A DNA stretch of 64,000 nucleotides from the IMG/VR virus record IMGVR_UViG_3300034105_002232; one strand, 5' to 3'. Under the pieces are notes generated by a model. The model saw only the letters and a program-made list of their open reading frames with translations, had not been told where the DNA came from and did not search any database. Origin of the DNA: a virus. The position numbers and the translations under genes are program-made. Below, piece after piece: positions 18,169-60,645 of this stretch (position 1 is its first letter; each line of letters begins with the position of its first letter).

Positions 18169-18821
18169 ACAAGTACATGGTATATTGTTGTGCAGGCACA
18201 GGCGGATTATTTTTGACTTCGGTGATAGCTAATTTTTTAGGAATGACAGTAAAACCAAATTTTTCTAGCACCGGACATAGTCATGACCAAGGCTACGGTA
18301 ACTGGAAAGGTGCCAACCGTGTTGTTAATTTTATTGGTGATTATTGGAGCAATCTTCGGCGCGGCTACCCAATTTTTAATGCACATTACGGACCTATTAG
18401 AGATTTTAAGAAGTCGCAAAAAAATTTAAAAGTCATTAGTATCAAGATGTATCCCGATGATTATTATGATGTAACTAAACTCTTTGTTTGCAAAGCTTGG
18501 CCCGACATATTAACAGAGCAAGAATATGCAAATCAAAAAGGTGTTGATTGGCCGGACTATAGCACTAATATAATTGCTGAATCAGAAATAGTAAGGACAG
18601 ACCTAATCAATCACTTATTATTAAAGATTACGGACTGGGACAAAAATTATGACAGAGAAGTAGTTGATTACAATATTAATTTTAAAACAGTGATGGGATT
18701 AGATAATGCATCACTGGCAGATACAGTTTCTGATATTTTACAAAAACCTGTAACAGATGAGATACAAAAATTAATTAATGAGTATCAGCAGTTGAATAAA
18801 AGATTGTACTTTAATAGTTAA
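18165..18821 (+). CDS. Hypothetical protein, possible sulfotransferase-like fold
   Basis: N-terminal YCCAGTGGLFLTSVI resembles the 34330 ORF (HFAPGARGDFLSSVL); contains GVDWPDY. Confidence 0.45.
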   Translation: MNKYMVYCCAGTGGLFLTSVIANFLGMTVKPNFSSTGHSHDQGYGNWKGANRVVNFIGDYWSNLRRGYPIFNAHYGPIRDFKKSQKNLKVISIKMYPDDYYDVTKLFVCKAWPDILTEQEYANQKGVDWPDYSTNIIAESEIVRTDLINHLLLKITDWDKNYDREVVDYNINFKTVMGLDNASLADTVSDILQKPVTDEIQKLINEYQQLNKRLYFNS

Positions 18822-18857
18822 CCACTTGTTTTATATTCTAACATAAAAAATTTTAAA

Positions 18858-24045: not shown

Positions 24046-25213
24046 AATAAAAGTTACGTTACGAAATCCATTGGATTATAGTGACACATTGGATTATTAT
24101 ATCCGGACATACGATAATCCAATGTCACATGATTGGATTGATGCACTCAAAAAATTATTGCAGTCTAATTCTCTCTTAGAGAAAAATTTCTGCTTTATGG
24201 GTTTTCCTAATACAGCAAGAACATTAGACTATTTGTGTAAAGAGCTTAATAAAGCAGTGTTACAGATTAACAAGTTTAACAGTACTCTTGCATGGATACA
24301 CGGCGATCTGGATTCGTACTTCATCGAAGAATACTTTACACCAGATACAGTTAGATACGGAATAGAATATCCGATACCAAAAAGATTACATAAAGAAGGA
24401 ACCAGTGACTATTATCTAACACAGTTCATAGGGTTGTCTGAGAAAAAAAGCATACTCAATAAGTTACATAATCACTTTGAAATTCTTCAAGGTACAGTGA
24501 ACAATTCTAGTCCGTATTATGTATTAGCTGATTACGAAACAAAATATGCTATTAGGCAACTAAACATACTCTGCCACGAAATGGAAAATTTAATTCTGAG
24601 TCAGCAAAAACAAGTTTATTTGCCTGAATGGATCAGACCAAGCCAAATTACAACATGGTTACATGCTCCTCGACACACATTGCGTGCCGAACATAGAAAA
24701 CTGTTTTTAGAAAATGGGTACGATCGTAGATTTGGTCATGTATACATGCACTGGGCGCAAATAGGTAAAACATTGTTTGAAGTGTTTAGGGACGAAGGTG
24801 CACCTGATCTTACTGACGCAGTGTGTGAGGCAATTACACATCTTGAATATTACAGCGGTGAGTTTGATATTGATTGGGGGCTAGATGTAGTATCGGGTCA
24901 TGACTCAAGACATTTTTGGCACATCAAAGAACAACAATTGTTTCGTGAGTGGCTGGTAAAGAATAAATTGGACCCTTTGGATGAAAACTTGAGTTTAGGT
25001 TATCTACCTATTGGTGAGGTTGATCTACTAAAAAGTTTTGGTACAACCGATCATTTTAAAATATGGAACATGTTAGGAAGCTACTCGGACATATATTCTG
25101 TGCAAATTGAAAATGTTATTGGTACATATCCTTACTGTTGGTCTGATTCAGATTATAAACAAATGCAAATTGATATGATGAAACCAGGATATGATTATAG
25201 TAGCCGGCGGTGA
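24023..25213 (+). CDS. Hypothetical protein
   Basis: About 396-aa ORF coupled to both neighbours; LNKLHNHFE, LNILCHEME, HWAQIGKT motifs, family not recognised. Confidence 0.7.
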   Translation: MSGGNQSEIKVTLRNPLDYSDTLDYYIRTYDNPMSHDWIDALKKLLQSNSLLEKNFCFMGFPNTARTLDYLCKELNKAVLQINKFNSTLAWIHGDLDSYFIEEYFTPDTVRYGIEYPIPKRLHKEGTSDYYLTQFIGLSEKKSILNKLHNHFEILQGTVNNSSPYYVLADYETKYAIRQLNILCHEMENLILSQQKQVYLPEWIRPSQITTWLHAPRHTLRAEHRKLFLENGYDRRFGHVYMHWAQIGKTLFEVFRDEGAPDLTDAVCEAITHLEYYSGEFDIDWGLDVVSGHDSRHFWHIKEQQLFREWLVKNKLDPLDENLSLGYLPIGEVDLLKSFGTTDHFKIWNMLGSYSDIYSVQIENVIGTYPYCWSDSDYKQMQIDMMKPGYDYSSRR

Positions 25214-25985
25214 TAGTTTTGTTTACGGTAGCGAACTCCAGTCGCCAAATAATACCTTTACGGCATTGTTAAGTCGGGAATACGAATATAATTGTGTAGC
25301 ATGGCCAGGTATTGGTAATGATGGTATAGCTCGACGAGTTATTTCTGAGATTCAAAGACAATTGCCTAAAAAACTTTTTGTTATAGTTAATTGGACTTTT
25401 CCTGGAAGATATGAATTTAAATTTACATATGATACCGGGCAACGTACCAAAGAATGGTATTCGATCACTGCATGGACTATTAAAGAGATAGATGAAATAG
25501 AACAAGAGTTTATTTCAAAGGATACACAAATTTTAGGTGAACATAGTAAAACTATAACTCGTGCCAAATCAACCGGAGTACACAATTTTGCAAAGGCTTT
25601 TTATCAACATGTGGGCAGCGGGGAATATTGGGAAGTATATTCTACGTTAAAAGAAATAGTTTATTTACAGAATTACTTAAAAGCAAACAATGTTCGCTAT
25701 TTGTTTACCTGTGCTGATAACAGTATCTGGTATAATTATACTACTCAACACGCTGATGTAACCATACACAGTTTAACAGAACAAATATTCAATGATCAAG
25801 AATCTTGGTTTTGGTTTCCAGCCGGAACATTAGAAAATGAAACAAAAGAACCTAGAGGTTTTTACCAATGGGCAATTGAAAATAAATACCCAGTAGGAAC
25901 TACACATCCACTTGAAGAAGCTCACGCAGCAGCAGCAGAATTAATTAAGGAAAAATTCAATGAACTGGTTACAAAACATCTATAA
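25191..25985 (+). CDS. SGNH/GDSL-like hydrolase or acyltransferase
   Basis: AGGDSF block I, G.GN block II, C-terminal THP..EAH. Confidence 0.65.
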   Translation: MIIVAGGDSFVYGSELQSPNNTFTALLSREYEYNCVAWPGIGNDGIARRVISEIQRQLPKKLFVIVNWTFPGRYEFKFTYDTGQRTKEWYSITAWTIKEIDEIEQEFISKDTQILGEHSKTITRAKSTGVHNFAKAFYQHVGSGEYWEVYSTLKEIVYLQNYLKANNVRYLFTCADNSIWYNYTTQHADVTIHSLTEQIFNDQESWFWFPAGTLENETKEPRGFYQWAIENKYPVGTTHPLEEAHAAAAELIKEKFNELVTKHL

Positions 25986-26061
25986 TAGAATTAAACTAGA
26001 AATTAAATATCGGCGTAAGCTACGTGAGCTACGCAAACGAGATCCATTTATTTACAAATGA
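25960..26061 (+). CDS. 33-aa basic microprotein ending RDPFIYK (not in the ORF track)
   Basis: ATG 25960 with SD AAGGA upstream; MNWLQNIYNRIKLEIKYRRKLRELRKRDPFIYK; its TGA overlaps ATG 26058 and it fills the gap exactly. Confidence 0.75.
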   Translation: MNWLQNIYNRIKLEIKYRRKLRELRKRDPFIYK

Positions 26062-26630
26062 TATTAGTAAACGGGTGTAGCTTCACCAGCGGCGAAGAAA
26101 GCTCCATCGCCTGGCCAAGCTTGGTACATGATTCTGTTAACATTGCAGTCGCAGGAGCCAGTAACGATTATATTGTACGTAGCACAGTTAACTACATCAA
26201 CACCACCGAAGAATATCCTGTCAAGGTTATTATTGCGTGGACATCACCGGACAGAATAGAAATATCTAACAATCATTTAACTGCTAACAGCATTAAGAAA
26301 TACGGGCAAGTGATAAATGAAGTATTTAGAGGATGGGATCAGGACTGGGCCAGAGATAAGTTTTTAACTCAAGTTGAGTTACTACATGCTTTTTTATCCT
26401 ATAAATTGATTCCGCACTTTTTTGTTAGTGCGTTTGATATACAAACGTGGGCCAGTGGCGCAAAGACTTATCCGTGGTTGGGATGGCCTGATCAGGGCCT
26501 AGTTGAATGGATGAGCGATTGTCCTAAAGGACCAGAAGGCCATCCATTGGAACTTGGACATCAACGAATAGCAGATAAAATAAATGAACATATTGGGAAT
26601 CTCGGCTGGTTTTCACGACGCAGCGACTAG
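26058..26630 (+). CDS. SGNH/GDSL-like hydrolase
   Basis: NGCSFT, AGASN, C-terminal GHP..LGH..IA. Confidence 0.65.
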   Translation: MILVNGCSFTSGEESSIAWPSLVHDSVNIAVAGASNDYIVRSTVNYINTTEEYPVKVIIAWTSPDRIEISNNHLTANSIKKYGQVINEVFRGWDQDWARDKFLTQVELLHAFLSYKLIPHFFVSAFDIQTWASGAKTYPWLGWPDQGLVEWMSDCPKGPEGHPLELGHQRIADKINEHIGNLGWFSRRSD

Positions 26631-28065
26631 TGTAATTGACCATCACGGCAATATACTGTTTGCTGCTCATAGTGAACGCTACAGCAAAATAAAGAACGAT
26701 CCAAATCTCTGTTACGAATTGTTACGTGATGTGATGTCTCATGGCCCAGTCAATCATGTGGCCTACTACGAACAACCATTGCAAAAGCAATTGCGTAGGT
26801 TGCGCAGTGGCGAGGGTATAGAGTGGAACAGATTATCTACCAAGAAAATCCTCACTGAGCAATTTGGCGGATATGCACATATTCCAAGTTACAGCAGTCA
26901 CAGCCATCATCTCAGTCATGCTGCAGCAGGATTCCAAACCAGTCCATTTGATCGTGCCACTGTGGTAGTAATAGATGCCATTGGAGAATCAGATACCATC
27001 AGCATTTACGGTGCAGAGTACGACAGCCATGGACAGGCACACTATAAACGACTATGGGGACAACGTTACCCACACAGTATAGGATTGTTCTACAGTGCAA
27101 TGACGCAACGTGTGGGACTTAAACCCAATGAAGAAGAATATATCATGATGGGCATGAGTGCATACGGTGATCCTGGTCATGCTGATACAATAAGCACACA
27201 ATATGTTGCAGATGAGTATCGTGCCACATTTAAAGAAAACTTACACATAGGCATTGATCAAACAGCATTGGCTGATTTGAGCAACACTGATATTGCAGCA
27301 TCAGCACAAGCATTGACAGAACGAATGATTTATAATGTGATGTGCAATGCTAGAGATTTTAGATGGAGCCATAATCTTGTATACATGGGCGGAGTTGCAC
27401 TCAACTGTCTAGCCAATAGAAACCTAGGAGAATACTTTGAAAATATATGGATTATGCCTAATCCTGGCGATGCTGGTAGCAGCCTTGGTGCTGCCGCACT
27501 TCAATATGGGCGTCGCCTTAATTGGGTCAATGCTTATCTTGGTCACAATATTCCGGGAGCATATCCGGTTAGACCCGTACTTGATAGTTTATTGGTTGAC
27601 GGTATTGTTGGTGTTGCATCTGGTCGTGCTGAGTTTGGTCCACGTGCTTTAGGTAATAGAAGTTTGTTGGCGGATCCTAGAGGTCCAGATATCAAGGATA
27701 GAGTAAATGAAATTAAACGCAGACAAAAATTCAGACCCTTCGCCCCTGTTGTATTGGCTGAGATGGCTGACCAGTACTTTGATCTCAGCCCTGGCTGGCT
27801 TGACAGCAATTATATGCAGTCAGTCGCTCGTTGCAGGTTTCCTGACCGTTTTCCTGCTATCTGCCATCATGATGGGACCAGTCGAGTACAAACGGTATCG
27901 TCGGATGGTTCAGGAATCCGAGCATTGTTAGAGGCCTGGTATGAACGAACTGGCTGCCCTATGCTGCTTAATACCAGCTTGAATATAAGAGGAGAGCCCA
28001 TGGTCAATGATAGAGCTGATGCAGATAGATTTGAACAACAATACGGAGTCAAGGTTTATTCATGA
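26584..28065 (+). CDS. O-carbamoyltransferase, NodU/CmcH/TobZ family
   Basis: ILGIS..FHDAA, ERYSKIKND, HHLSHAA, DAIGE, GGVALNC, GDAG, RAEFGPRALGNRSLLADP, FRPFAP, DGTSRVQTV, LLNTSLN.RGEP. Confidence 0.93.
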   Translation: MNILGISAGFHDAATSVIDHHGNILFAAHSERYSKIKNDPNLCYELLRDVMSHGPVNHVAYYEQPLQKQLRRLRSGEGIEWNRLSTKKILTEQFGGYAHIPSYSSHSHHLSHAAAGFQTSPFDRATVVVIDAIGESDTISIYGAEYDSHGQAHYKRLWGQRYPHSIGLFYSAMTQRVGLKPNEEEYIMMGMSAYGDPGHADTISTQYVADEYRATFKENLHIGIDQTALADLSNTDIAASAQALTERMIYNVMCNARDFRWSHNLVYMGGVALNCLANRNLGEYFENIWIMPNPGDAGSSLGAAALQYGRRLNWVNAYLGHNIPGAYPVRPVLDSLLVDGIVGVASGRAEFGPRALGNRSLLADPRGPDIKDRVNEIKRRQKFRPFAPVVLAEMADQYFDLSPGWLDSNYMQSVARCRFPDRFPAICHHDGTSRVQTVSSDGSGIRALLEAWYERTGCPMLLNTSLNIRGEPMVNDRADADRFEQQYGVKVYS

Positions 28066-39497: not shown

Positions 39498-40766
39498 TTA
39501 TTTGCCTTTCGCTGCATCTTCGTAATGCGCCCAAATACCCCATGGTGGTTCACAACCAGGATTGCCTTTGATGATCCATACTGTTTCACAGTAACTTTCC
39601 TCGCCCCACTCACCAAATGGCATGCCGTCTGTGAACATGATAAACTTCTTGGGTTCAATTGCGTTGTCTTTCATAAACTCCCAATTGGCCATGAAGTCTG
39701 TGCCACCACCTCCGGCAGGTTCGTACTCCATAATGTCGTCAATGTTGTCTGACGTATATGTCTGCACGTTATAGATTTCAGTATCAAAGCACCACAGCGT
39801 GATCTTGTACTCGTCAAAGGCTTCCATAATACCTTTGATCTCACCCAAGAACGCTTTGCTATCTTCCTCACTGATACTACCTGATTGGTCCATAGCAATA
39901 CATACATCAATCATCTCACCTGGCTTGAGCCCTGGCATGATGGCATCCATGTGCCATCCTTTGCGACTTGGTCTAGCCCATGTATAATCGTTCTTGATTG
40001 TGCTTTGAATCTGTTGTTGCAGTAGCTCTTTCCAACCAATGACTGGTTCTGTTAAGTCTCTTAACAAACGTTTGACACCGCTGGGTAAATTGCCTGCGCC
40101 TGCACTTTGTGCAGCAGCAATCACAGCACCTTTAATTTCGTCCTTGATAGCATCACGTTCTTCTTTGCTCAACCGAGGCCGCTTTCCACCCTGCTCATCC
40201 CCGTCGTCACCTGATCCGCCGTTACCATCTTCATCTTCTTCTAAATGATCATCAAGAATCATTTGTTCAAGTTGATCAATATTGATCTTTTTTGCATTCT
40301 GATAAAGATAGTCATATACTTCTTCGTAACTCATATCCTTGAACTTGTTGTCAAACAAGATTGGGCATACACTGATCTTCTCACCAATGCGCTGTTCTAT
40401 CAAGTCTTGATTGACGCAGTAGTCTGCAGCAATATTGCTTAGTCTTGGTTGACGATCACCGCGCCGACCCATGTGATCATAAACCGCATGCAGAATCTCA
40501 TGCCCAACCAAAAACTCAAGTTGTTTCAGCGGCATCTTGTCAACAAACTCGCTGTTGTAATAAAATTTACGTCCGTCTGTAGCAGCAGTGCCGCACCAGG
40601 CATCAGCATTGGTCAAGGTCATTCTGGTTGCCAGCTGCCCAAAGAACGGAGCCTTTAACAACAAGCCAATACGGGCAGTAGTAAGTTTCTCTCTAGCAAC
40701 GGCATCTGTTTTTGGATTCGTTACTGTGACTACGTTGGACTTGTCAATTGCTGTACTTTCAGCCAT
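39498..40766 (-). CDS. DUF2201-type metallopeptidase-like plus VWA domain protein
   Basis: TAATDG, HEILH (HExxH), NIAADY, acidic linker, MIDAS DQSGS, GGGGTDF, FTDG. Confidence 0.88.
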   Translation of the reverse strand: MAESTAIDKSNVVTVTNPKTDAVAREKLTTARIGLLLKAPFFGQLATRMTLTNADAWCGTAATDGRKFYYNSEFVDKMPLKQLEFLVGHEILHAVYDHMGRRGDRQPRLSNIAADYCVNQDLIEQRIGEKISVCPILFDNKFKDMSYEEVYDYLYQNAKKINIDQLEQMILDDHLEEDEDGNGGSGDDGDEQGGKRPRLSKEERDAIKDEIKGAVIAAAQSAGAGNLPSGVKRLLRDLTEPVIGWKELLQQQIQSTIKNDYTWARPSRKGWHMDAIMPGLKPGEMIDVCIAMDQSGSISEEDSKAFLGEIKGIMEAFDEYKITLWCFDTEIYNVQTYTSDNIDDIMEYEPAGGGGTDFMANWEFMKDNAIEPKKFIMFTDGMPFGEWGEESYCETVWIIKGNPGCEPPWGIWAHYEDAAKGK

Positions 40767-49268: not shown

Positions 49269-50363
49269 TTAAAATAGGTCTACCGCTTCCCACGGAAGGT
49301 CTGCCTTGCCAAAATGTCCGTAGTTGGTGGTACTGCTGTAAATTGGTCTAAATAGATCAAACCGATTGATAATGCCACGTGGTGTTAGATCCACGTTGTC
49401 TTGGATCCAGGTGGTCAATGCCGCACTATCACCATCACTTTCTACATAAAAGCTCATGGGCTTCTCAATGCCAATGGCATAACTGATTTGCACAGTGGCC
49501 CATGTTGCTTGTCCACTGGCCACAATGTTCTTGGCAAGATACCGCATCATGTAAGCTGCACTACGATCTACTTTGGTAGGATCCTTGCCAGAGAAGGCGC
49601 CACCGCCGTGTGGTGCATATCCGCCATACGTGTCAACAATGATCTTGCGCCCAGTTAGTCCGGTATCACCATCCGGACCTCCAATCACAAAACGTCCAGT
49701 TGGATTGATATAAAATTCCGTATTGGCATCAATGTATTTTTCTGGTAGCAGACTGCGGATTATAAGTTCAATGGTACTGCGTACAGTATCAATGCCAACT
49801 GATTCGCTGTGTTGAGTACTGCATACTACCTTGGTAATACGTACCGGTTTGTTGTTAGCATCGTACTCAAATGTAACTTGGCTCTTGGCATCTGGGCCAA
49901 GCCAGGCCACTAAAAGATTCTTACGTATACTAGTCAATGCTTCCACAATTCTGTGACTCCAATAAATTGCACTGGGCATGTAATTATCAGTTTCGTTGCA
50001 AGCATATCCAAACATAAGACCTTGATCTCCTGCACCAAACGTGTCTGTACCTAGTGCAATATCTGCACTTTGTGCATGCAACAGATTGGTAATCTCAACG
50101 GTCCGCCAATCAAAACCTGATTGTTCGTACCCAATGTCTTTGATAACTCGACGAACAGCACTTTCGACTTCTTCCTTGTGTAAAACACCCTTGAATTCAC
50201 CTGCCACAACAACTCTGTTGGTAGTAACCAGCGTTTCGCATGCACATCTCAGTGCAGGGTTTTGTTCGCGCATTACAAGATCCAGTACTGCATCTGAGAT
50301 AGCATCTGCTACCTTGTCTGGATGTCCTTCTGATACTGATTCACTGGTAAAAAGATATGTCAT
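49269..50363 (-). CDS. metK: S-adenosylmethionine synthetase
   Basis: [72 protein letters not shown]. Confidence 0.97.
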
Positions 50364-50379
50364 TTGCTTCCTTGAAAAA

Positions 50380-50583
50380 TTATTCTTTGCCCCATTTGAT
50401 CTTGAGCCAAATTCGTTCGTGTATGTAATAGTCTACGCTTAACAACAGATGTAACACCGTGGCAAATCCTGCTGCAGATCCGAAGTCTCCAGTGAACAGG
50501 TATGTCCAGAAGATAGTAAACAGCCAGGCAGTTAGCCTGTAAGTAAGCATTCGTACTACGGTTCTTTTTCGTGTTTCTGTCAT
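50380..50583 (-). CDS. DUF2061-like small membrane protein
   Basis: ETRKRT...TYR...YY.HERIW.KIKWG. Confidence 0.75.
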
Positions 50584-51434
50584 TAGGTCCCCCATTCATT
50601 TTTAAATAGTGGTACTTGCAATCTATCACTATATCTTAGGCCATGTTGCATGGCCAATTCTGCCACTCTGCGATTGTTTAGACTGTACACACTCTCAACA
50701 CCACCAACAGGCATTAGATACACAGGACCTGTGAATCCCGCTTGTCTATAGGCCTGCACAGTCCATACAGCTTCTTCAACATCGGCCTCTGTGGCTACTA
50801 CCAATTTGAGATAGGTATGTCCGTATTTTTCATAATTGCACACAATATCAGGCCGAATAGCTTCGTCTCTACTTTCTCCCGAGCAACTTAGCTTGGTACT
50901 GACACTAAAAGTCACTTCACGTTTGACGCCACTGGCAAATTCCCACTTGGTCAAATACTGTGCAAACTCAGTTGACAGTTCTTGAGTACCATTTGTTTCA
51001 AATGTAATCTCTTTGAGCGTGGCCATTTCTGGTTGTTCTAGCAAGTCGGGATATGCACGTTGCCACCCCAGCAGCGGTTCACCACCTGTGATCACAAGAT
51101 GTTCGTCTCTCCACTCTTTGAATGGCAAGGTCTCTACAATAGACTTGGCAATCACATCAGTATCGTATGTGGCGGAAAGATCTTTGAATCTTGGATCCCA
51201 AGACGCATAACTGTCACATCCTGTACTCACTAACGGTAGTTCGTGATAGAATTTAAAGTCTGCAACACGATCAGCAATGGCCTCTACTTCAGTGCTGGCC
51301 TGACCAGCAGGCATACCAAAGCCGGCGCATTTGAAGTTGCATCCAAATGTTCTCAAGAACACACTAGGCACACCCATATAACGGCCTTCACCTTGGATAC
51401 TGTAAAACAATTCTGCTATCTTGAGTTTACTCAT
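50583..51434 (-). CDS. queE: 7-carboxy-7-deazaguanine synthase (radical SAM)
   Basis: ELFYSIQGEG..G.PSVFLRTFGCNFKC...(insert)...CDS, VITGGEP, ETNGT, RLQV. Confidence 0.9.
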   Translation of the reverse strand: MSKLKIAELFYSIQGEGRYMGVPSVFLRTFGCNFKCAGFGMPAGQASTEVEAIADRVADFKFYHELPLVSTGCDSYASWDPRFKDLSATYDTDVIAKSIVETLPFKEWRDEHLVITGGEPLLGWQRAYPDLLEQPEMATLKEITFETNGTQELSTEFAQYLTKWEFASGVKREVTFSVSTKLSCSGESRDEAIRPDIVCNYEKYGHTYLKLVVATEADVEEAVWTVQAYRQAGFTGPVYLMPVGGVESVYSLNNRRVAELAMQHGLRYSDRLQVPLFKNEWGT

Positions 51435-51934
51435 ACAAACAAGTCCTCGTTCCATTCACGATGGCCTTCTCTAAAAGCCATGTTGCTTTGTGTTTCGCGC
51501 ACTTCTACTCGGTAGCACCACAATCGTTCTGCTTCTGATTGCCCCCACATGTCAGGGATGTACACTCCATTAACATATTTGTAAAGTTGGTCAGCCAGGC
51601 CTTCGCAACCTAATCTAGGTAGTATGGTCAGCTTGGCTAGCTTGCGCCGTTCCATTTCTTTGTAGAACTCCAGCTCAGGATCATCCTCAGCTACCAGCAG
51701 GGTATGATCAAACTGGCTTTCGAGTACGCTTTTGAGTTCTTTAAGCCCACCATAATCAGCAGCCCAGTTGCGGGCATCAAGATTATTAGTACCAAAATAA
51801 AACTTCATGCTAAAACTATAACCGTGAATCAGGTTGCAATGGCTATCGGCTCGCCATTGACGGTATGCTACCGGAAAGGCATTGTGATACTCTTTGGTAC
51901 TGGTAAATTTGTATTGTACTGGTTGTAGTGTCAT
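51431..51934 (-). CDS. queD: 6-carboxy-5,6,7,8-tetrahydropterin synthase
   Basis: SHCNLIHGYS, DYGGLK, FDHTLL, GCE, VEVRET; adjacent to queE. Confidence 0.88.
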   Translation of the reverse strand: MTLQPVQYKFTSTKEYHNAFPVAYRQWRADSHCNLIHGYSFSMKFYFGTNNLDARNWAADYGGLKELKSVLESQFDHTLLVAEDDPELEFYKEMERRKLAKLTILPRLGCEGLADQLYKYVNGVYIPDMWGQSEAERLWCYRVEVRETQSNMAFREGHREWNEDLFV

Positions 51935-51941
51935 TGTATTG

Positions 51942-52017
51942 CTCCTATGTGTAATAATAACATAGGCTGTAGAATTTGTAAAGCGGGATAAAGCCAGAAA
52001 GGCCGCTGTGTAGAATT
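51942..52017 (-). ncRNA. Candidate structured cis-regulatory leader (preQ1-I-like pseudoknot plus anti-SD hairpin) with nested promoter
   Basis: Sense strand: AGCGG..GGCT..ATC-CCGCT, A-rich linker, AGCC, then CCTATGT/ACATAGG hairpin masking AGGAG; TTTACA-17-TATTAT lies inside. Confidence 0.45.
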
Positions 52018-52021
52018 ATAT

Positions 52022-53509
52022 TTATGTTTGTTTTAGTAACATATATCTATTTTGTGGATTTTTAAAACTTACAAAACTCTGTTCAATTGAGGACAGTGAA
52101 AAACCAGCATTCCATAATGGCCAGCTGTATTTAATACCTTCTTCCATAATTCTCAGATGGCGGCGGACTCGTTCTTTAAAGTCAAACTCTGGTCTTGCAG
52201 GATCTAACCAAAATTTTGTATTCATATGCCCGGTAGCTGCGTCTTGTTGAAAAACAAAATTTTTATTAATTGCAATTGACTCTAAATGTGTATCGGGCAA
52301 CACACTTAATAGATTTAAAGTTTCGACCCCAATAATAGTACCACTTGCAACATATTTTTGCCATCTAGAAAACATTTGTAATGTCTCATTATAATCTTCA
52401 ATGGTTTCAGATATGTATCCTGTAAAGAATAAAAAAAGAATCTCGATGCCATGTTTTTGAAAATTTTCTAAATAAAATTCAATGTCATCATTGGTAAATT
52501 TTTTACCAATTTCAAATCTAATCCGATCACACCCAGATTCAATACCAGCATATAATCGTTTTCCTCCTCCTTCTTTGATCAAATCAAAATGATCTTTTGG
52601 AGTAGTTTCCTTGGATCGTATTATATATTGTCCGGACCACGATATTGGTGTGTGAAATCTATAATTAGCTAAAGTATTGCACATGTCGTTAAATGCCTTA
52701 AAACTGCCGTTTATTAGACTGTCTGCAAAGTAAAAATCAGTAACTCCGTATGTTTCGTAATGTTGTATAATTTCGCTAGCAATGTTCTGACCTGATCTAA
52801 ATTGATATTTGGGAGTTGTTACTCTAACGTCACAGAACGTACAATCTCTAACACATCCTCTGCTGCCAATAATATTAAATTCTAATTTGTTTTCATCGTT
52901 ACGATACGCTGTTAAGTCATAGTATGAATAATCCGGAAACGGATACTGATCCAAATTAGTTATCTGTACAAAGTCCAAATTTCCTATACCTGGACCTGAG
53001 CTATGCTTGAAATATTGTATTAGCGATTCTTCGGCCTCGCCTACAATATACTCATCAATTAGATTATTGTCTTTAAGAATAGTACCATAAGTTTTACTAT
53101 TTCCAATTACTCTTTTAATTCCTGCACCACCAATTATAATTTTAGCCTTGGATTTTTTCCTAATGCTTGGTAATAGAATATTAGTAAATGATTGTGCCAG
53201 ATATGAAAATAAACTAACTATAATGTAATCAAAACTACTAACTTGAATCTGATCTAGATAATTTAGTAACCATTGATTAATTATTTCTTTTTGGTCTGCG
53301 GAATAATCAGACACCATCTCGTAAAAAACATCGTCAAAAAAAGAATCAGGTTTATTGATATTTCTTAAATATTCACGTAAGTGTATATTCATATCTTTGG
53401 CCGAGACATCGTGCCCAATACTAGCACAGAGACTCGCTAATATTGCGCCACTTAACGGAGGCCGTAGATGATCAAGAGGCGGCACATGTAATATTAACGT
53501 CTTAATCAT
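52022..53509 (-). CDS. B12-binding radical SAM protein (class B methyltransferase-like), AT-rich
   Basis: PPL..AILAS, KIIIGGAG, VGEAE, P.PDY, SRGCVRDCTFC, FADSLING, GIESG. Confidence 0.88.
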   Translation of the reverse strand: MIKTLILHVPPLDHLRPPLSGAILASLCASIGHDVSAKDMNIHLREYLRNINKPDSFFDDVFYEMVSDYSADQKEIINQWLLNYLDQIQVSSFDYIIVSLFSYLAQSFTNILLPSIRKKSKAKIIIGGAGIKRVIGNSKTYGTILKDNNLIDEYIVGEAEESLIQYFKHSSGPGIGNLDFVQITNLDQYPFPDYSYYDLTAYRNDENKLEFNIIGSRGCVRDCTFCDVRVTTPKYQFRSGQNIASEIIQHYETYGVTDFYFADSLINGSFKAFNDMCNTLANYRFHTPISWSGQYIIRSKETTPKDHFDLIKEGGGKRLYAGIESGCDRIRFEIGKKFTNDDIEFYLENFQKHGIEILFLFFTGYISETIEDYNETLQMFSRWQKYVASGTIIGVETLNLLSVLPDTHLESIAINKNFVFQQDAATGHMNTKFWLDPARPEFDFKERVRRHLRIMEEGIKYSWPLWNAGFSLSSIEQSFVSFKNPQNRYMLLKQT

Positions 53510-54038
53510 CTAATGTTTTTTTTATTTGGGCAATCTTATTTGATATTGTTTGGTGATCAAATTTATCACGACCGCTATATGTCTGAGATGTCAACACATG
53601 ATTTTTTATAAACTTCTCCTGTATGATCCAATTTAAAACTGGGTTAGTAACAGCAATTTTGATGGTACCATTTGTATAAAATCCCTTGGTGTTAAAAAGA
53701 CCAACCTTGTGGTCAATCATAATTGGAAGATTTCTAATCCAGACTTCCTCCATTGATATGTCGTTTATTTTAAAATTGTTAAACACAACGGATTTATCAG
53801 CAAGAATGTTTCTATCCAAATCTAGCACAGTGTCCCAAACACCATCCTGACCAAATTTTTTGCCTATGCCAGAAATTTCAATTAAGTAGCTGTTTGATTC
53901 TGGTGCAACAACGCTTAAAATTTGATTACCTTGAATTTCTCCGTTAAAATGTAGCATATTGTTTATTTTTATATTTAACGTAGGCCAAGATGCTCCCTGA
54001 TTGCCGGTAACATCAAGCAGTAGGGTTAATGCCACCAT
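53502..54038 (-). CDS. Hypothetical AT-rich protein
   Basis: 178 aa, coupled to the B12 radical SAM gene. Confidence 0.6.
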   Translation of the reverse strand: MVALTLLLDVTGNQGASWPTLNIKINNMLHFNGEIQGNQILSVVAPESNSYLIEISGIGKKFGQDGVWDTVLDLDRNILADKSVVFNNFKINDISMEEVWIRNLPIMIDHKVGLFNTKGFYTNGTIKIAVTNPVLNWIIQEKFIKNHVLTSQTYSGRDKFDHQTISNKIAQIKKTLDD

Positions 54039-54577
54039 GACTCGTACGGGAACTCAATCCATACGTCCTGTTCGGATTTGTTGATCTCTTCGCCAACATA
54101 GCTGGTACTGATGTTGGATTCGCTAGCAAGATTATCATACAGCACAGCAAATCGCACATTGTTGCCCCAAACATGTTCCCAGTCTGGATCAGCTGGCAAA
54201 CAACTGCCTTGCCAATCTTGCATGATCCAGTTGATAGTAGCGCCGCTGTCATTGATATCATCAACAATTAATATTTTTTTAGCAAATGTAGGGTCGCTAC
54301 GCTTGCTAATACCTTCACGGAACGGACCTTCGGGTATGTATCCAAATGCATCCTCGGCCATCCAGCAGTTGCTTTCGCACTGCCCGCCATCACGTAAACT
54401 GACCTTGAGCATTTCGCAAGGGACGTCAAAGTAATGACTAATCATCACAGCAGGAACAGCGCCGCCACGAGTGATGCCCACAACATAATCGGGGCGCCAA
54501 TCATCAACAGCAATGTCTCTACAAATTTTACCCACAAGCCCAGTTAACGCTTTATTAGTGACAATTAATTTATTCAT
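54026..54577 (-). CDS. Type I phosphoribosyltransferase (xanthine-guanine PRT-like)
   Basis: VVGITRGGAVPA, ILIVDDINDSGAT PRPP motif, WIEFPYE. Confidence 0.88.
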   Translation of the reverse strand: MNKLIVTNKALTGLVGKICRDIAVDDWRPDYVVGITRGGAVPAVMISHYFDVPCEMLKVSLRDGGQCESNCWMAEDAFGYIPEGPFREGISKRSDPTFAKKILIVDDINDSGATINWIMQDWQGSCLPADPDWEHVWGNNVRFAVLYDNLASESNISTSYVGEEINKSEQDVWIEFPYESWWH

Positions 54578-54765
54578 TAGTCACGTTCCATTTCAGCTGC
54601 TTCCTTGATGAGGGCTGTCAGTTCCGCAAAGTCCTTGCAAAGAACTTTGGCAGTAACCCATTCTTCGTTGCTGTTGCGTCCACCAACTTCAACCATGTAG
54701 CCATTGTCATACATGTAGACAGTGAAGTGGTCGTTACATTTTGTTAGTTTATTGTTGAGTTTCAT
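54577..54765 (-). CDS. Hypothetical protein
   Basis: 62 aa; SD GGAG; YDNGYMVEVGGR. Confidence 0.7.
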   Translation of the reverse strand: MKLNNKLTKCNDHFTVYMYDNGYMVEVGGRNSNEEWVTAKVLCKDFAELTALIKEAAEMERD

Positions 54766-54783
54766 TGCATCTCCGTGATTGAT

Positions 54784-55086
54784 TTATTTCTTCCAAAATT
54801 TGGCCTTGTCTAAAGCGGTTTTCTTTGGTTCTGATTTTTGCGGTGGCTCGGGTTCAGGTGGTGTTGTTCGAACAGGCAAATCTGATTTAAGCATGTTTTT
54901 GATCAACAGCACTGTTCTTTCTAATTCCTTGTCGGCTATTACTTTGATAGCCAATAATTTACTATCGTAATTGTTTGCACCATCAAGCAAGCCGGCTGGT
55001 ACTTTCATTGTTTTTTTTGGTTTAAGTGAGTCTAGTTGTTTCTTTAATGCTGCTGCGTCATTGTTATTATTATTTTCGTCGGACAC
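54784..55086 (-). CDS. Hypothetical protein
   Basis: GTG start with SD AGGA. Confidence 0.6.
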   Translation of the reverse strand: MSDENNNNNDAAALKKQLDSLKPKKTMKVPAGLLDGANNYDSKLLAIKVIADKELERTVLLIKNMLKSDLPVRTTPPEPEPPQKSEPKKTALDKAKFWKK

Positions 55087-55121
55087 TTTATTTTCCTATC
55101 AAACTAGATAGGACAAATATC

Positions 55122-55931
55122 CTATCTAGGTGCAAACTCCTGTTGCAATTTAATGTTGTCGAAGAATTCCTTCTTAACACTGGAGTCGGTTTTAAACGCA
55201 CCCTGAAGAACTGTAGTTTGTGTCAAACTACTATGTGCCATAATGCCACGGTTTTCACAACACCCGTGCGTTGCTTGAATATAAACTGCAACATTCTCAC
55301 TGCCTGTTGCTGACATAATTTCTCGAGCAATATCATTACATAGCTCTTCTTGCAACGTACCTCGCCTAGCACACCATTGTGCTATACGTGTATATTTACT
55401 CAAGCCAATTAATTTTTGGGCTGCAATGATACCAATATAGGCAACTCCAGCCACTGGCTGGTGATGGTGGCTGCACATGCTGCGTAACTCACTGCGTACA
55501 ACCAGCATACCGTCGTAACGATCTGCACTATCATTGGGAAAAGCCGTTGCTTCGGGTGCAGTTTCGTACCTGCCTGCCATTATTTCGTTAAAATACATCT
55601 TGGCAAGTCTACGTGCGGTGCCTTGGCTGTTGGGATCTGTTTCGCGATCAATTAGTAATGCATCTAATACCCCCTCAAATGCTTCTGTGGCTTCATTGAT
55701 CAAATGTTCGCGATCTGAATTGGCCACATAGTCGCTGATGTTGTCGCCTGCCCAGAAGCGTTTGTTGTCAGCTCGCATTCGTTCACGTAGGGCAGCACTC
55801 AGCAGTTTTTCTTTTTTAACACCAGGTTGGTCTACTGCACGAACGTACAATGGTGATGGTACTACTAAAGGTACAAACTCTGTTGGTGGTGGTTGATTTA
55901 ATACTGGATCTGGGGTAAATTCTGTTGTCAA
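55122..55931 (-). CDS. folE: GTP cyclohydrolase I
   Basis: GTARRLAKMY, SMCSHHHQP, IGLSKY.RI, LQEEL, HGCCENRG; probable TTG start at 55931 after SD GGAG. Confidence 0.95.
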   Translation of the reverse strand: MTTEFTPDPVLNQPPPTEFVPLVVPSPLYVRAVDQPGVKKEKLLSAALRERMRADNKRFWAGDNISDYVANSDREHLINEATEAFEGVLDALLIDRETDPNSQGTARRLAKMYFNEIMAGRYETAPEATAFPNDSADRYDGMLVVRSELRSMCSHHHQPVAGVAYIGIIAAQKLIGLSKYTRIAQWCARRGTLQEELCNDIAREIMSATGSENVAVYIQATHGCCENRGIMAHSSLTQTTVLQGAFKTDSSVKKEFFDNIKLQQEFAPR

Positions 55932-55967
55932 TTGTGTTCTCCGAGTTAAGGACGTGGATGTCAAAGT

Positions 55968-56061: not shown

Positions 56062-57189
56062 TTATTCTTCCCAAACATATGGGCCAGATTTTTGTACAGC
56101 AAAAGTTAAATACGATTCAATTTTTTCTAAATCTGCTGAAGTTTTTAAACTAGTAACTTCGTTAGCAAAGTGTAATTCAACTCCTAAGTCTAACGCCAAA
56201 TTTAAAATTTCTTTGCGTCTTTCTGCATCGTCGGTTAACGAATATATACTACACATTACTATACCGTCTGGCTTTTGTTTGATGTAATGTTCTAGTGCTG
56301 GTTGCCAATCCATATGCTCGTTGTCTGTTAGATAATCATTATAACTAATTTTATTTTTTACACAATATTGTTCTATAATAGAACGTTGCATAGGTAATGT
56401 TTGCCATTTACTAAAAGCACTACTCCATCCTGCATAAGTAACAAATTTTCTTCCGGTATTATCCGAAATCCTTGCACCTTCGTAGTCGCCTGGTAACCGC
56501 ATAAATCCTCCTGGGTTTCTACGCAAATATTCTTCTCCTTCAACCAGGATACGCATATCCATACTGACTCTAGTATAATTTTCTTTATTGTCTACATTAC
56601 CGTGCAAGTGTTCTTGTAAAAATAAGTGACTTTGGCCTGTATTCAAGGTTACTGGTTGTGCATAACGTAAACATTCTTTTTCAAATTTTTCTAAGCTCCA
56701 TTTTTCACTTAACACTTGCTTAGTAAGTTGCCTACTAATAGCTAAATCTAATATCCACATAGTATTAGTTTTCTCTGCGCGAGTAAAAGGTGTCCAAATG
56801 GTTCTGCAACCTCTACCATTGCCTACAAATATGCCCTGATGAAACCATAATCTGCGTCCTGCCTGTGCCTGATTAGGTATAACGACTCGTAGCGTACCTT
56901 GTCGTTGTATTAAATACTTTTTATAATTAATTCGTTGTGGAATATATTCTTCTACAAATTTATCAAATTTCTCCATGAAATCTTTTCTGCTGCATGCATT
57001 TTGCACATGGGCCGCAACCTTGACTATTTCAGCAGGATTTAGAACTTCGTGTAAAGTTTCTAGTTCTTTTACGTGTGGCATTATTTCTTGTATAATAGAC
57101 AATGCCCAAGCAGGCCAATTATACTTTCCTAAATTATAATTTAGAGTTTTGTTATTCCACTCTTTTTCGGTTATTTTTAGTTCTGTCAT
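56062..57189 (-). CDS. Fusion of a 2OG-Fe(II) oxygenase-like domain and a sporadic-carbohydrate-cluster (LIC12192-like) domain
   Basis: N-terminal Q...TLRVVIP..FHQG...TIWTPFT...HGN..N...TRVSMDMR; C-terminal QR.II..YC.KN.I...DGIV..SIY.L..D..RR.EI...GVELHFANE. Confidence 0.6.
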   Translation of the reverse strand: MTELKITEKEWNNKTLNYNLGKYNWPAWALSIIQEIMPHVKELETLHEVLNPAEIVKVAAHVQNACSRKDFMEKFDKFVEEYIPQRINYKKYLIQRQGTLRVVIPNQAQAGRRLWFHQGIFVGNGRGCRTIWTPFTRAEKTNTMWILDLAISRQLTKQVLSEKWSLEKFEKECLRYAQPVTLNTGQSHLFLQEHLHGNVDNKENYTRVSMDMRILVEGEEYLRRNPGGFMRLPGDYEGARISDNTGRKFVTYAGWSSAFSKWQTLPMQRSIIEQYCVKNKISYNDYLTDNEHMDWQPALEHYIKQKPDGIVMCSIYSLTDDAERRKEILNLALDLGVELHFANEVTSLKTSADLEKIESYLTFAVQKSGPYVWEE

Positions 57190-58106
57190 TGATTTTTCCT
57201 TAAAAATTTTAATAAATCAATAGTGTCATTGATACCGTTACTAAGGCTAACTTTAGGTTTCCACCCTAAAGTTTGTGTGATTAAATTATGATCGCTGTTT
57301 AGGTAATAGAGTTCACCAGGCCTAATAGGTTTTGAATCCCAAATAATTTTTCCTTGCCAGTTCAATTTATTAGCAATTAATTGTGCATAATCCTTGATCT
57401 TAATAGGATTGTCTGGTCCTAATGTGAAAGTTTTGCCTTCGCACAAGGTAGGATTATTAATTACTTGCTCCCATGCGTCAACTAAATCATCAATGTAGAT
57501 AAAGTTTCTATAAGGTTCTGCGTATCCTAAAGAAATTTCGTTAGGATTACTTAACATTTGTGAAATAATTTGTTCAGTTACAAAAAAGTTATTATCTTTT
57601 CTGCCGTAGCTATTTGTTTGCCTAATTATTGTAAACGGTAAATTTAAACAACGTCTAGCATATTCTAAATATTTTTCAACGCCAAATTTAGCAATAGAAT
57701 ATGGAGCATTGGGACTGGGTATAGTGTGTTCGTTAAACGCTATAAATTTATCAGGAATCAAATTTAGTTTTACTTCGTCGCTAATTGGTTGCCACCCATA
57801 TACCTCCATTGTGCTAGCAAAAACAAAGTTTTTTAAATTTTTAAGTTTACTAGCGGTTTCAATTAAGTTAACGCTACCTACATAATTAATTTGACTGAAA
57901 GTAATTTGTTCGTAAAAGCTTTGTTCAACTTCTGTTCTAGCAGCTAGATGAACTATTATTTCTGGATTGGACTCTATTACTTCTTTAGTTACTTCGGCAA
58001 AATTAAGTAAATCATTTTTTAAAAAATGTAACTCATTATTATGCCCAAGTCTAGCAGATAGGTAGGATCCTATAAAACCGGAATGTCCGGTAATTAAAAT
58101 TTTCAT
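57186..58106 (-). CDS. NAD-dependent nucleotide-sugar dehydratase/epimerase (RmlB/Gmd-like)
   Basis: ILITGHSGFIG, VHLAA, ASTMEVYG, PYSIAK, RNFIYIDD, RPGE. Confidence 0.9.
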   Translation of the reverse strand: MKILITGHSGFIGSYLSARLGHNNELHFLKNDLLNFAEVTKEVIESNPEIIVHLAARTEVEQSFYEQITFSQINYVGSVNLIETASKLKNLKNFVFASTMEVYGWQPISDEVKLNLIPDKFIAFNEHTIPSPNAPYSIAKFGVEKYLEYARRCLNLPFTIIRQTNSYGRKDNNFFVTEQIISQMLSNPNEISLGYAEPYRNFIYIDDLVDAWEQVINNPTLCEGKTFTLGPDNPIKIKDYAQLIANKLNWQGKIIWDSKPIRPGELYYLNSDHNLITQTLGWKPKVSLSNGINDTIDLLKFLRKNQ

Positions 58107-58678
58107 ATAATTGTAATTTGTCGCAAATCAGGATATTGATGATATTCAGGTAATTTGTTGATGGTAGTTAATTTTTCTAAACCAATTTTTGCGTCTTCGA
58201 TAGTGGGTCTATAGTGATACCCAATCTTGAACGTGCATTGTGATTCCCAAGGCGCAACAGATAATCTGCGTCCGTCGTATCGTTGTTCAATTATGGTACT
58301 GTATGCCTGTGCATCATCTAACAGTATAGCACCACCATGCCCTATATGTAAAGGTTTATTGTGCCCAAAACTCAGACACTGCATTTGTCCCGCACGATAC
58401 ATGTTTCTTTCCAATCTACGTGCGCTATCCCAGATGTTAGTGCCGTGAAACGGATATTCACCAACCCAGGTTTCTTCGGTGTACAAATATGCAATGCCCA
58501 ACTTGTGCATGGTCATTGGTATACTAAGATAGGTGAATGGAGTAAATGCTGTTTGAGTGACAGCATGGTATCGTAGACACATTTCAATCGCATGAGTACA
58601 ACAGTCGGTCATTATGGCATAAGGTGCACCAGTGTACTCGGCTAATGCCTGTTCAAATTTTAATATTTGATCAAACAT
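58103..58678 (-). CDS. Short DegT-like PLP-dependent aminotransferase
   Basis: FEQALAEYTGAPYAI.TDCCTHA, WDSA, CLSFGHNKPLHIGHGGAIL, GYHY; only 191 aa. Confidence 0.75.
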   Translation of the reverse strand: MFDQILKFEQALAEYTGAPYAIMTDCCTHAIEMCLRYHAVTQTAFTPFTYLSIPMTMHKLGIAYLYTEETWVGEYPFHGTNIWDSARRLERNMYRAGQMQCLSFGHNKPLHIGHGGAILLDDAQAYSTIIEQRYDGRRLSVAPWESQCTFKIGYHYRPTIEDAKIGLEKLTTINKLPEYHQYPDLRQITII

Positions 58679-59678
58679 TTTTTATATTTTGAACAAGTTG
58701 TTGTATATCGTTGGTATACCGTTTACCTAAATCAATGTTGTAAAACAATTCCATATTTTTTTTCCTCCTGTTATGTGTTTTGATAAAAATTTCATGTAGA
58801 TTTTCTTTGACTAAATCATCTAATATCTCATGAAGTTTAAACATTCTTTTAAATGGATCTGGTTCTATATCATAGTAATCATGATTTATGATATCGTCGA
58901 ATGTATCAATCCCGTAGCCTCTCAGATGTTCAACAGAACCTGCACAACTAAACAATAAAAATAACTGTCCAGCTGCAATAGGTTTCCAAGTTTTTTCTGA
59001 TATAAAAAAATTGTGTGCAACGGTAGTTTCGGTTACTAAATTTATGTAGCTGTTACGATATGCAGGATGTGACAGGTCTATATGGTGAGAACAAATATTT
59101 GTATCTCCAAACATAGGTAAATTAGCGCTAACATTATCCCATTCGGTAATTATATTGTTAGGAAGCAGAGGTTCGTCACCTCTGTTGTTTTTTATATTAA
59201 CTGGATCTGTGTGTATACTAAAAAAACAATCATCATAGTATGATTTATTTTTTAATACCAAATAATTGTAAATTCTGTGAGGTCGCGGAGTGCCATTTAA
59301 ACAGCAAACTTTGTATCTTCGTTTTACACGATTGATTCTGTTATTACCAATTGCTTGATCTTTAAGAACATTTTTTAAAAAATAATAATAAAATGGATGA
59401 TATACTAAATTTGATTTTTGTAAATGATGGGAGGAATCCGACGACAGTATCAGAAAGTTTAGCAGATAAGTTTTTATTTTGTCGTGTAGATCAAACGGAA
59501 TATTACCAAAATTACTATCACTAAAGAAAATAACTAAAATTTTATTTTTATCTGTAGTGATCAATGTGCGGTCATTCAAATCAATGCATTTGCATCCGTC
59601 AATGAATACAAAATTAGGATCTGTTAGACTATACAATCCATTTTGTAGATAATCAGGAAGGTCAGGAAGGGTCAGCAT
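58671..59678 (-). CDS. TEK(T/I)-motif GT-like protein (AT-rich)
   Basis: CCLNGTPRPHR...INLVTET...ISEKTWKPI.AGQLF...LRGYGIDTFDDII.HDYYD. Confidence 0.55.
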   Translation of the reverse strand: MLTLPDLPDYLQNGLYSLTDPNFVFIDGCKCIDLNDRTLITTDKNKILVIFFSDSNFGNIPFDLHDKIKTYLLNFLILSSDSSHHLQKSNLVYHPFYYYFLKNVLKDQAIGNNRINRVKRRYKVCCLNGTPRPHRIYNYLVLKNKSYYDDCFFSIHTDPVNIKNNRGDEPLLPNNIITEWDNVSANLPMFGDTNICSHHIDLSHPAYRNSYINLVTETTVAHNFFISEKTWKPIAAGQLFLLFSCAGSVEHLRGYGIDTFDDIINHDYYDIEPDPFKRMFKLHEILDDLVKENLHEIFIKTHNRRKKNMELFYNIDLGKRYTNDIQQLVQNIKNV

Positions 59679-60645
59679 CTCTAGTATACCATTTGTATGC
59701 ACTATCAATTAACTGATTGATAGTTGAGTAGTTGGGTTTCCATTTTAGTAAAGTATAAGCCACTGTGTAATTGGCAACCAGACGATCCGGGTCACCAGGG
59801 CGTCTTGGACCTACTGCGACCGCAATGCCATTGTAGTTCAGCATCACATAGTCAATGATTTCTTGGTTGCTGATACCATGCTCAGTACCAAGATTCATTA
59901 CCGCAGCATGTTTCTCAACTTGATTGTTCATCCAATCAATGGCACGTATATGTGCATCTGCCAAATCCCATACATGTATATAATCACGTATACAAGTACG
60001 ATCTGGGGTGTCGTAATCAATACCGTTCAAAGTAAATGTTTGACCAGCCAACTTGGCTTCTAGTATCCTGGCAATGATATGACTGGCACCAGGTGCTTGT
60101 CCAAGATCATGTGCGAAAGGCTCTGCTCCGGCTGCATTGAAATATCTAAAACACACACTGGGAACGCCGTATGCTGCATGATAATCGCTCAACATGCGTT
60201 CAGTCACATGCTTGCTAACACCGTAGGGACTGATAGGCAATTTGGGATCTGATTCATACACAGGTACAATCGCAGGATTGCCGTACACACTGGCACTGCT
60301 ACTAAACAGTATCAGGGGTTTTTTGTCTAAATCCTTTACATGTGTCAGCAGTGTAATAGTTTTTGCAATGTTGTTTTCGTAGTATTCTGCAGGATTGACC
60401 ATGCTTTCGCCAACCAAACTACTGCCTGCACAATGCACAATCACGTCAGGCTGTATCTCACTAATCCACAGCAAACTACTTTTACTAGCATAATCTTCGT
60501 GTAAATATCCATCTATGCCTTTAAGGGTGTGATCTCTGCGCACACGGTCAATGGTGTAGACCCGATTATCTTTGTCGTGTTGCTTTAATGCTCGTGCGAT
60601 GTGGCTACCAATGTAACCACATCCGCCTGTGATAACTATTTTCAT
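59662..60645 (-). CDS. galE: UDP-glucose 4-epimerase
   Basis: ITGGCGYIGSH, HCAG...VGES..NP.EYY.NN, FSSSASVYG, PYGVSK, RYFNAAGA, TCIRDYIHVWDLADAH, RRPGDP. Confidence 0.9.
   Translation of the reverse strand: MKIVITGGCGYIGSHIARALKQHDKDNRVYTIDRVRRDHTLKGIDGYLHEDYASKSSLLWISEIQPDVIVHCAGSSLVGESMVNPAEYYENNIAKTITLLTHVKDLDKKPLILFSSSASVYGNPAIVPVYESDPKLPISPYGVSKHVTERMLSDYHAAYGVPSVCFRYFNAAGAEPFAHDLGQAPGASHIIARILEAKLAGQTFTLNGIDYDTPDRTCIRDYIHVWDLADAHIRAIDWMNNQVEKHAAVMNLGTEHGISNQEIIDYVMLNYNGIAVAVGPRRPGDPDRLVANYTVAYTLLKWKPNYSTINQLIDSAYKWYTRDADPS

Follow-up and report, generated by a model that had tools for sequence, protein, structure and literature searches.

The closest described relatives, in architecture, of the RNA element discussed here are the preQ1-I riboswitches (RF00522), which comprise types I-III and include those of B. 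subtilis queC, T. tengcongensis and E. coli yhhQ. Large phages of the T4 kind also use autogenous translational operators, including the 5' pseudoknot in the leader of gene 32. To our knowledge, riboswitch classes that are essentially confined to viruses are almost unknown, and we know of none that controls a DNA base-modification pathway. Here we describe the leader of a queD-like gene from an uncultured large phage in IMG/VR (record IMGVR_UViG_3300034105_002232), which was analysed as a stretch of 64,000 nt, called the window below, and in which the leader is read on the minus strand. The leader contains a conserved pseudoknot that is linked almost exclusively to genes of the PTPS/QueD fold, and a competing helix covers the ribosome-binding site (RBS). 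We consider it about an even call that the queD leader is a cis-acting two-state RNA switch, a candidate for a new riboswitch class of the ON type with a preQ1-I-like architecture.

An earlier reading of the letters without database searches (the sequence-only reading) had placed the element at 51935-52026. This covers the whole intergenic region, as the upstream open reading frame (ORF) has its stop codon at 52024-52022 on the minus strand. That ORF encodes a 495-aa B12-binding radical-SAM-like protein (SAM, S-adenosylmethionine), the gap from it to queD is 87 nt on the minus strand, and a search for an intrinsic terminator of the upstream gene found none. The leader contains an H-type pseudoknot of 43 nt (52007-51965, minus strand) formed by two helices (P1 and P2) and three loops (L1 to L3). 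Downstream of it, the Shine-Dalgarno sequence (SD) is covered by a hairpin. The elements are, in 5' to 3' order on the minus strand:

52003-52007, minus strand: P1 5' strand, AGCGG, pairing with 51986-51982
51996-52002, minus strand: L1, CCUUUCU; in the family it starts with YCU and is 4-9 nt long
51989-51995, minus strand: P2 5' strand, GGCUUUA, pairing with 51971-51965; in the family a variable 4-7 nt and then UCA
51987-51988, minus strand: L2, a U and an unpaired C that immediately precedes the P1 3' strand and is invariant (alignments A1 and A3, described below)
51982-51986, minus strand: P1 3' strand, CCGCU, from pairing and covariation
51972-51981, minus strand: L3, UUACAAAUUC, an A-rich linker, constant at 10 nt in the alignments
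51965-51971, minus strand: P2 3' strand, UACAGCC, the last two C of which are the first two bases of the anti-SD hairpin
51944-51966, minus strand: anti-SD hairpin CCUAUGU/ACAUAGG with a 9-nt loop, arms 51966-51960 and 51950-51944, present in the minimum free energy (MFE) fold
51946-51942, minus strand: SD, AGGAG, 7 nt before the ATG, from sequence
51934-51932, minus strand: ATG start codon of queD, from sequence
51431-51934, minus strand: QueD-like (PTPS-fold) gene, presumed to be regulated; 167 aa, Pfam PF01242 with E = 9.3e-14, NCBIfam QueD score under that model's cut-off

P1 was found as the sequence-only reading had drawn it (AGCGG/CCGCT, a loop ending in AUC, an A-rich linker), on the minus strand, and it covaries; it encloses a loop of 16 nt. 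The pairing of GGCT in this loop with the downstream AGCC also proved to be real and covarying, although it had been drawn too short. P2 has 7 positions and not 4, consisting of GGCU, a U.C mismatch and UA, paired with UA, C and AGCC. Compared to the UCA/UGC of the family, the UUA/UAC of the window P2 is a compensatory double change from C-G to U-A.

The reference features of preQ1-I used in this comparison, including the position of its specificity cytidine, are those given in PMC10622847. Like preQ1-I, the phage motif is a small H-type pseudoknot in the leader of a gene of the queuosine/7-deazaguanine pathway, with a 5-bp P1 that is closed by G-C pairs and ends in two G-C. It also shares an A-rich L3, which in the phage motif may contact P1, control that would act through accessibility of the RBS, and an invariant unpaired C at the position of the specificity cytidine, which may have a role in pairing with a ligand. 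The two differ in size, with a core of 43-50 nt across the phage family compared to about 30-36 nt in preQ1-I, and in P2, which has 7-10 bp and the conserved U.C mismatch instead of 3-4 bp. In preQ1-I the SD is inside the P2 3' strand, whereas in the phage leaders it is 20-40 nt downstream of P2, and the P2 3' strand is itself the anti-RBS element, giving a predicted ON logic instead of OFF. The phage L1 is YCU plus 1-6 nt and not U(U)C, a departure from the U/UUC start of preQ1-I that had been pointed out by the sequence-only reading and is confirmed here. Finally, the phage L3 has a fixed length, and UC, not A, precedes the P2 3' strand.

Rfam 15 was searched with the whole window at gathering thresholds, which gave 0 matches, and with the window leader and three diverse relatives at E<=10. 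None of these four leaders gave a riboswitch match at E<=10, RF00522 included. One 14-bit line for preQ1-II aligned just the RBS and was discarded as noise. The motif departs from preQ1-I in its Rfam result, in the length of P2, in where the SD is placed and in its regulatory logic, and for this reason it was not filed as a member of this class. Its architecture resembles preQ1-I, and membership, which the sequence-only reading had raised in the form of a possible variant, is not demonstrable. A literature search found no report of a queD-leader RNA in phages.

SAM-II and SAM-V (RF00521, RF01826) were also compared, as they are H-type pseudoknots, about 50 nt long, whose L1 is rich in pyrimidines and possibly located in the major groove of P2, and as the operon in the window has metK and radical-SAM genes. 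They differ from the phage motif by the sequestration of the SD in P2 and by OFF logic; there was no Rfam match, and the association with methionine/SAM genes does not hold for the phage motif. MetK was found downstream of the motif in just one surveyed locus besides the window, and the radical-SAM and MetK neighbours are specific to the window phage and not kept with the motif. SAM was rejected as a ligand for this reason.

The motif is part of a large family in viral metagenomes. It was found at more than 480 IMG/VR loci, with one copy at each, and the window QueD has more than 599 relatives there, the contigs of which reach 518 kb. Starting from the protein, the leader motif was present at 73 of the 79 usable QueD loci. 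Starting from the RNA, a DNA pattern scan with the P1 3' strand and L3 gave at least 120 matches, one copy per stretch, and QueD was within 700 nt in 114/120 of the matches listed, with 2 chance matches. Two further scans with the P1 variants CCACU and CCUCU gave at least 120 matches each. A QueD homologue was located no more than 1.5 kb downstream of the motif in 265/266 and 209/221 loci, among the matches listed, and most of the remaining motif loci, in which no QueD homologue was found, are incomplete. Two downstream genes that looked different were checked and both had the PTPS fold (183 aa, PF01242, E = 4.8e-27; and 306 aa). Overall, more than 95% of the loci have a PTPS/QueD-fold gene downstream of the motif, with at least three divergent PTPS types represented. 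The downstream QueD has between 20-30% and 94% identity to the window protein, whereas the RNA core is nearly fixed.

Within the window the motif is single-copy (67.6 bits, E = 4e-16; the next best match has 9 bits). A blastn search with the locus and the motif against 50,697 cultured phage records gave no real match, and the closest cultured QueD has 54% identity. In a pattern scan of 185,579 prokaryote genomes, the full motif was seen in 1 of the 120 matches listed, the rest being due to chance. This one, with a QueD, is on a 183-kb contig (ctg1-EUL_031, our locus L242) that was binned in a metagenome-assembled genome of Haliscomenobacter sp.; the contig probably comes from a phage and was binned along with a bacterium, and it may hint at a Bacteroidota host.

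The comparative evidence for the pseudoknot comes mainly from two MAFFT alignments, both of the core. Alignment A1 contains 139 distinct cores and was scored against a structure hand-written from the sequence, and A3 contains 145 distinct sequences balanced over three P1 classes. In A1, 95.0% of cells were paired and 10/12 pairs showed compensatory change; none of 500 shuffles scored as high, and slid registers gave 31-46% pairing. The values for A3 were 94.1% and 9/12, with the observed pairing or covariation score reached by 0/500 shuffles and slid registers at 33-53%. Pairing in P1 was 99.9-100% in both alignments, its middle pair was seen as C-G, A-U and U-A, and the neighbouring pairs flip too. 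All 7 P2 pairs are compensatory in the family, in which P2 consists of a variable 4-7 bp, then the conserved U.C mismatch, then C-G and A-U (UCA/UGC), to a total of 7-10; loci L042 and L396 carry UCG/CGC in P2. The G-U pairs are explicable on the queD sense strand only. Covariation across related queD leaders, which had been named as the check on the sequence-only reading, was therefore found for both P1 and P2. On this comparative sequence evidence, the pseudoknot is confirmed as more than chance.

The unpaired bases are conserved as well. The second position of L1 is C in 98-100% of sequences, and the U that follows is conserved in more than 90% (A1, A3). The C that immediately precedes the P1 3' strand did not vary in any sequence (139/139 in A1 and 145/145 in A3), and L3 always has 10 nt, with three A positions and the terminal UC invariant. 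Together, about 16 nt of invariant unpaired bases cluster at the helical junction. Positions 4 and 6 of L3 (51978 and 51976 in the window) co-vary with the middle pair of P1 (52005/51984), with L3 being xUA[Y]AAAYUC when this pair is C-G and xxAAA[N]AYUC when it is A-U or U-A; the number of independent events is small, and the first scan pattern fixed some L3 positions, which limits this L3-P1 covariation. It may point to a contact between L3 and P1, perhaps as a minor-groove base triple.

Around this constant core, the expression platforms vary by subgroup, with at least four types. In every subgroup described, the P2 3' strand also belongs to a helix that covers the RBS. In the subgroup of the window, P2 has its CC in common with the hairpin CCUAUG/CAUAGG that covers the SD. 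A second subgroup uses the pairing UGCCAUUG/CAAUGGCA, and in the largest other subgroup x3x2x1CAUC pairs with GAUGy1y2y3 over the start codon. This anti-start helix was analysed in 142 unique leaders and covaries with codon 2. The x2-y2 position was paired in 97% (G-C in 127, C-G in 11) and x3-y3 in 77% (U-A in 58, A-U in 30, plus wobbles), both above all 1000 shuffles, whereas the next position, x4-y4, was paired in just 33%. The anti-start helix shares 4-6 nt with the P2 3' strand and excludes P2. In this family, covariation therefore supports each of two helices that cannot form together. The competition between the P2 3' strand and the anti-SD hairpin described by the sequence-only reading stands to this extent: the overlap is present in the window, and its counterpart, the anti-start helix, covaries in sister subgroups, but the hairpin itself does not covary in the window subgroup. 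According to ViennaRNA, blocking the P2 3' strand would raise the probability of the SD being unpaired from 0.29 to 0.67, with an increase of more than 0.1 in 125/153 leaders; for the window, the predicted rise is from 0.25 to 0.88.

In four relatives (L043:2118-2999, and also L142, L175 and L183), a 293-aa ORF with no Pfam match lies between the SD of the leader and queD. The switch fronts a different first gene in these relatives, and the ORF may be a mobile insertion.

We propose that the leader could work as follows. In the first state, the 43-nt knot would form with a P1 of 5 bp and a P2 of 7-10 bp that includes the U.C mismatch. In the second state, the P2 3' strand would pair with the ribosome-binding region instead, through CCUAUGU/ACAUAGG over the SD in the window and through a helix over the AUG in sister subgroups. 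Formation of the knot would free the RBS and turn on the translation of queD. The ON-type wiring suggested by the sequence-only reading is supported in so far as it would follow from the competition of P2 with the RBS-covering helix; that the choice is gated by a ligand, that the logic is ON in vivo, and which ligand is bound, are what we infer. A small molecule would most likely stabilise the knot at the P1/P2 junction, as this is where the invariant unpaired bases cluster.

The candidate ligands would be members of the pathway with a guanine-like face: GTP, 7,8-dihydroneopterin triphosphate (as a feed-forward signal) or a 7-deazaguanine. 7,8-Dihydroneopterin triphosphate is the product of FolE, which is encoded just upstream. 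There is no QueC in the deazaguanine cluster of the window, and five near-complete giant phage genomes bearing the motif gave no full-length QueC match, just short partial ones of no more than 30 bits. The phages themselves therefore probably do not make preQ0 or preQ1, and the phage pathway probably ends at 7-carboxy-7-deazaguanine (CDG) or at a compound derived from it. As ligands, preQ0 and preQ1 are less obvious for this reason. A narrower proposal, which we make tentatively and hold to be somewhat less than probable, is that of a phage-specific riboswitch for a guanine-faced intermediate between GTP and 7-deazaguanine, for example 7,8-dihydroneopterin triphosphate or CDG, that switches queD ON.

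If this is true, no earlier riboswitch would exist for that ligand, and giant phages would have control of DNA hypermodification at the level of metabolites. Binding of a pterin or 7-deazapurine intermediate would represent a new ligand and a rare ON-type pseudoknot mechanism, would provide a sensor part, and would mean that giant phages regulate their anti-restriction DNA chemistry by metabolite sensing. If the motif is bound by a protein instead, it would be a new phage translational operator. Direct tests would be possible without culturing the phage, given the small size of the motif (43-50 nt), its abundance, with hundreds of natural variants, and its very good support by covariation.

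Several observations weigh against a ligand-gated switch. The MFE of the window leader is -13.9 kcal/mol (z = -1.12), with 24/200 shuffles folding as well or better, therefore the folding energy by itself is not evidence for structure. The sequences are related, so the shuffle controls overstate independence. In the scans with P1 variants, a perfect complementary P1 5' strand (AGUGG or AGAGG) was found in 117/120 and 104/120 of the matches listed, but the parser demanded P1 complementarity in both. The anti-SD hairpin of the window subgroup is 98.5% paired with 0 compensatory changes, and being near-invariant it is neither supported nor refuted by covariation. The duplex of the P2 3' strand with the RBS has an energy of -5.7 kcal/mol, a slight gain over the -4.4 kcal/mol of shuffled strands, with p<=0.05 in 13% of leaders, and the signal is weak. 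In terms of logic, an end product that activates a biosynthetic gene would be odd, so that preQ1 and preQ0 fit poorly, and in addition the five genomes gave no full-length QueC match. A protein could occupy the same conserved surface, the long P2 (7-10 bp) might form without a ligand, and if the promoter-like sequence nested in the leader (see below) is active, some transcripts would be without the switch altogether.

Among the alternatives, the most probable is a translational operator, bound by a host protein or by a phage protein, perhaps QueD or another pathway enzyme, which would choose between the knot and the RBS-covering helix. Covarying helices and invariant loop bases would be expected for a protein site too, the length of P2 would let it form in the absence of a ligand, and the gene 32 and gene 43 mRNA operators provide a precedent in T4-like phages. 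The gene 32 knot is a likeness in several respects, being a compact knot near the 5' end of an mRNA that exerts translational control in a large phage. However, the T4 operators are bound by gp32, gp43 and RegA, regulate replication genes and have no sequence similarity to the motif, whereas the phage motif is tied to the gene of a metabolic enzyme and has a competing RBS-covering helix. A single autoregulator would also need to keep the same RNA recognition across 20-94% protein identity and three PTPS types, and no candidate RNA-binding protein is consistently adjacent, the neighbours being FolE, the phosphoribosyltransferase (PRTase) and QueE. Variable expression platforms round a constant core are typical of riboswitches. 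The phage leaders show these along with association to the genes of one pathway, which is the general pattern of a riboswitch and points away from a protein site. We therefore consider an operator unlikely.

A device that works without any ligand is distinctly unlikely in our opinion. Here the knot would be constitutive, or would respond to Mg2+, temperature or co-transcriptional folding, and it would keep the RBS open or stabilise the 5' end of the mRNA. The anti-start helix would be needless if the knot always won, yet it covaries, and the roughly 16 invariant unpaired nt together with the strict U.C mismatch exceed the needs of a stabilising hairpin. In its favour, a rough nearest-neighbour estimate gives P1 plus P2 an energy similar to that of the competing hairpin, and a promoter-like box would put the knot at the 5' end of the transcript, where structure can protect mRNA.

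We know of no preQ1 switch with ON logic; the known ones all have the opposite, which the wiring of the phage leaders would contradict if they were a true but divergent preQ1-I lineage binding preQ1 or preQ0 through the invariant C, as bacterial queCDEF leaders do. The shared H-type knot, 5-bp P1, invariant C, A-rich L3 and position before a que gene (PMC10622847) are what such a lineage would show. Against them stand the lack of an RF00522 match in the four leaders, a P2 of 7-10 bp that lies 20-40 nt upstream of the SD, the different L1 and pre-P2 bases, and the lack of a full-length QueC match, by which preQ0 and preQ1 are probably not made by the phage. In our view this makes it very improbable.

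Promoter-like signals are also present in and around the leader. The nested one had been reported by the sequence-only reading and is present, with a sigma70 consensus match of 10/12:

51954-51982, minus strand: putative nested sigma70-like promoter, TTTACA-17-TG-n-TATTAT, with a TG before the -10
52019-52025, minus strand: ATAAATA box, T4-late-like/-10-like, overlapping a TATAAT at 52020-52015, 11 nt upstream of P1

The nested promoter is plausible from its sequence. Its -35 is in L3 and its -10 in the loop of the hairpin, and in a subgroup alignment (A2) the TA...T that marks a -10 hexamer is retained in the hairpin loop. The nested promoter is missing from other subgroups, in which the RNA motif persists, therefore a promoter is not what the core is conserved for. 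Upstream of P1, a TAAATA/ATAARTA/TATAAT box was found within 30 nt in 111/168 unique flanks (66%), at a distance of 5-11 nt from P1, compared to 2.7% of random windows of 30 nt taken from these loci. As a genome-wide promoter motif, ATAARTA was not enriched in the window (11 matches compared to about 35 expected). By its match to consensus, the ATAAATA box may be a promoter that starts the transcript at the pseudoknot. That the locus holds DNA-level signals only, namely promoters that overlap and an operator in the form of the inverted repeat CCTATG-N10-CATAGG at the -10, is hardly tenable and for the pseudoknot largely refuted. The good sigma70-like promoter with its extended -10 inside the leader, the TA...T kept in the loop and the invariant, non-covarying hairpin arms would agree with it, but double-stranded DNA sites leave the crossing P1/P2 covariation with one-strand G-U unexplained, subgroups without TATAAT keep the RNA core, and the anti-start helix covaries with codon 2.

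The sequence-only reading had also reported a repeat of AATTCTACA on both sides of P1. In the window it consists of two identical copies of 9 nt in direct orientation (52017-52009 and 51976-51968, minus strand); beyond the window it is seen, imperfectly, in the nearest relatives only, and it is not a feature of the family. It is perfect solely through a window-specific G-to-A change in the conserved UCUGC; the nearest relatives have (A/T)TCTACAC at the upstream site and TCTGC at the downstream site, and no function is apparent.

The leader is located in a 7-deazaguanine-type gene cluster of the window (49269-55964, minus strand), with the following genes besides queD:

55122-55964, minus strand: FolE
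54026-54577, minus strand: purine PRTase-like gene
178 aa, minus strand: gene of no assigned family
52022-53509, minus strand: B12-binding radical-SAM methyltransferase-like gene
50583-51455, minus strand: QueE-like gene
49269-50363, minus strand: MetK

The usual order among the surveyed loci is FolE, with or without the PRTase, followed by the motif, QueD and QueE. Sugar-modifying genes lie beside the deazaguanine genes of the window (56062-60645, minus strand) and comprise a 2OG-Fe(II) (2-oxoglutarate) oxygenase/LIC12192-like fusion, a 4,6-dehydratase/epimerase, a DegT-like aminotransferase fragment of 191 aa and GalE. Elsewhere in the window, an HNH endonuclease is encoded at 39498-40766, and a second auxiliary metabolic block on the plus strand (15748-28065) contains several radical-SAM-like ORFs and a Nol-like carbamoyltransferase (26584-28065).

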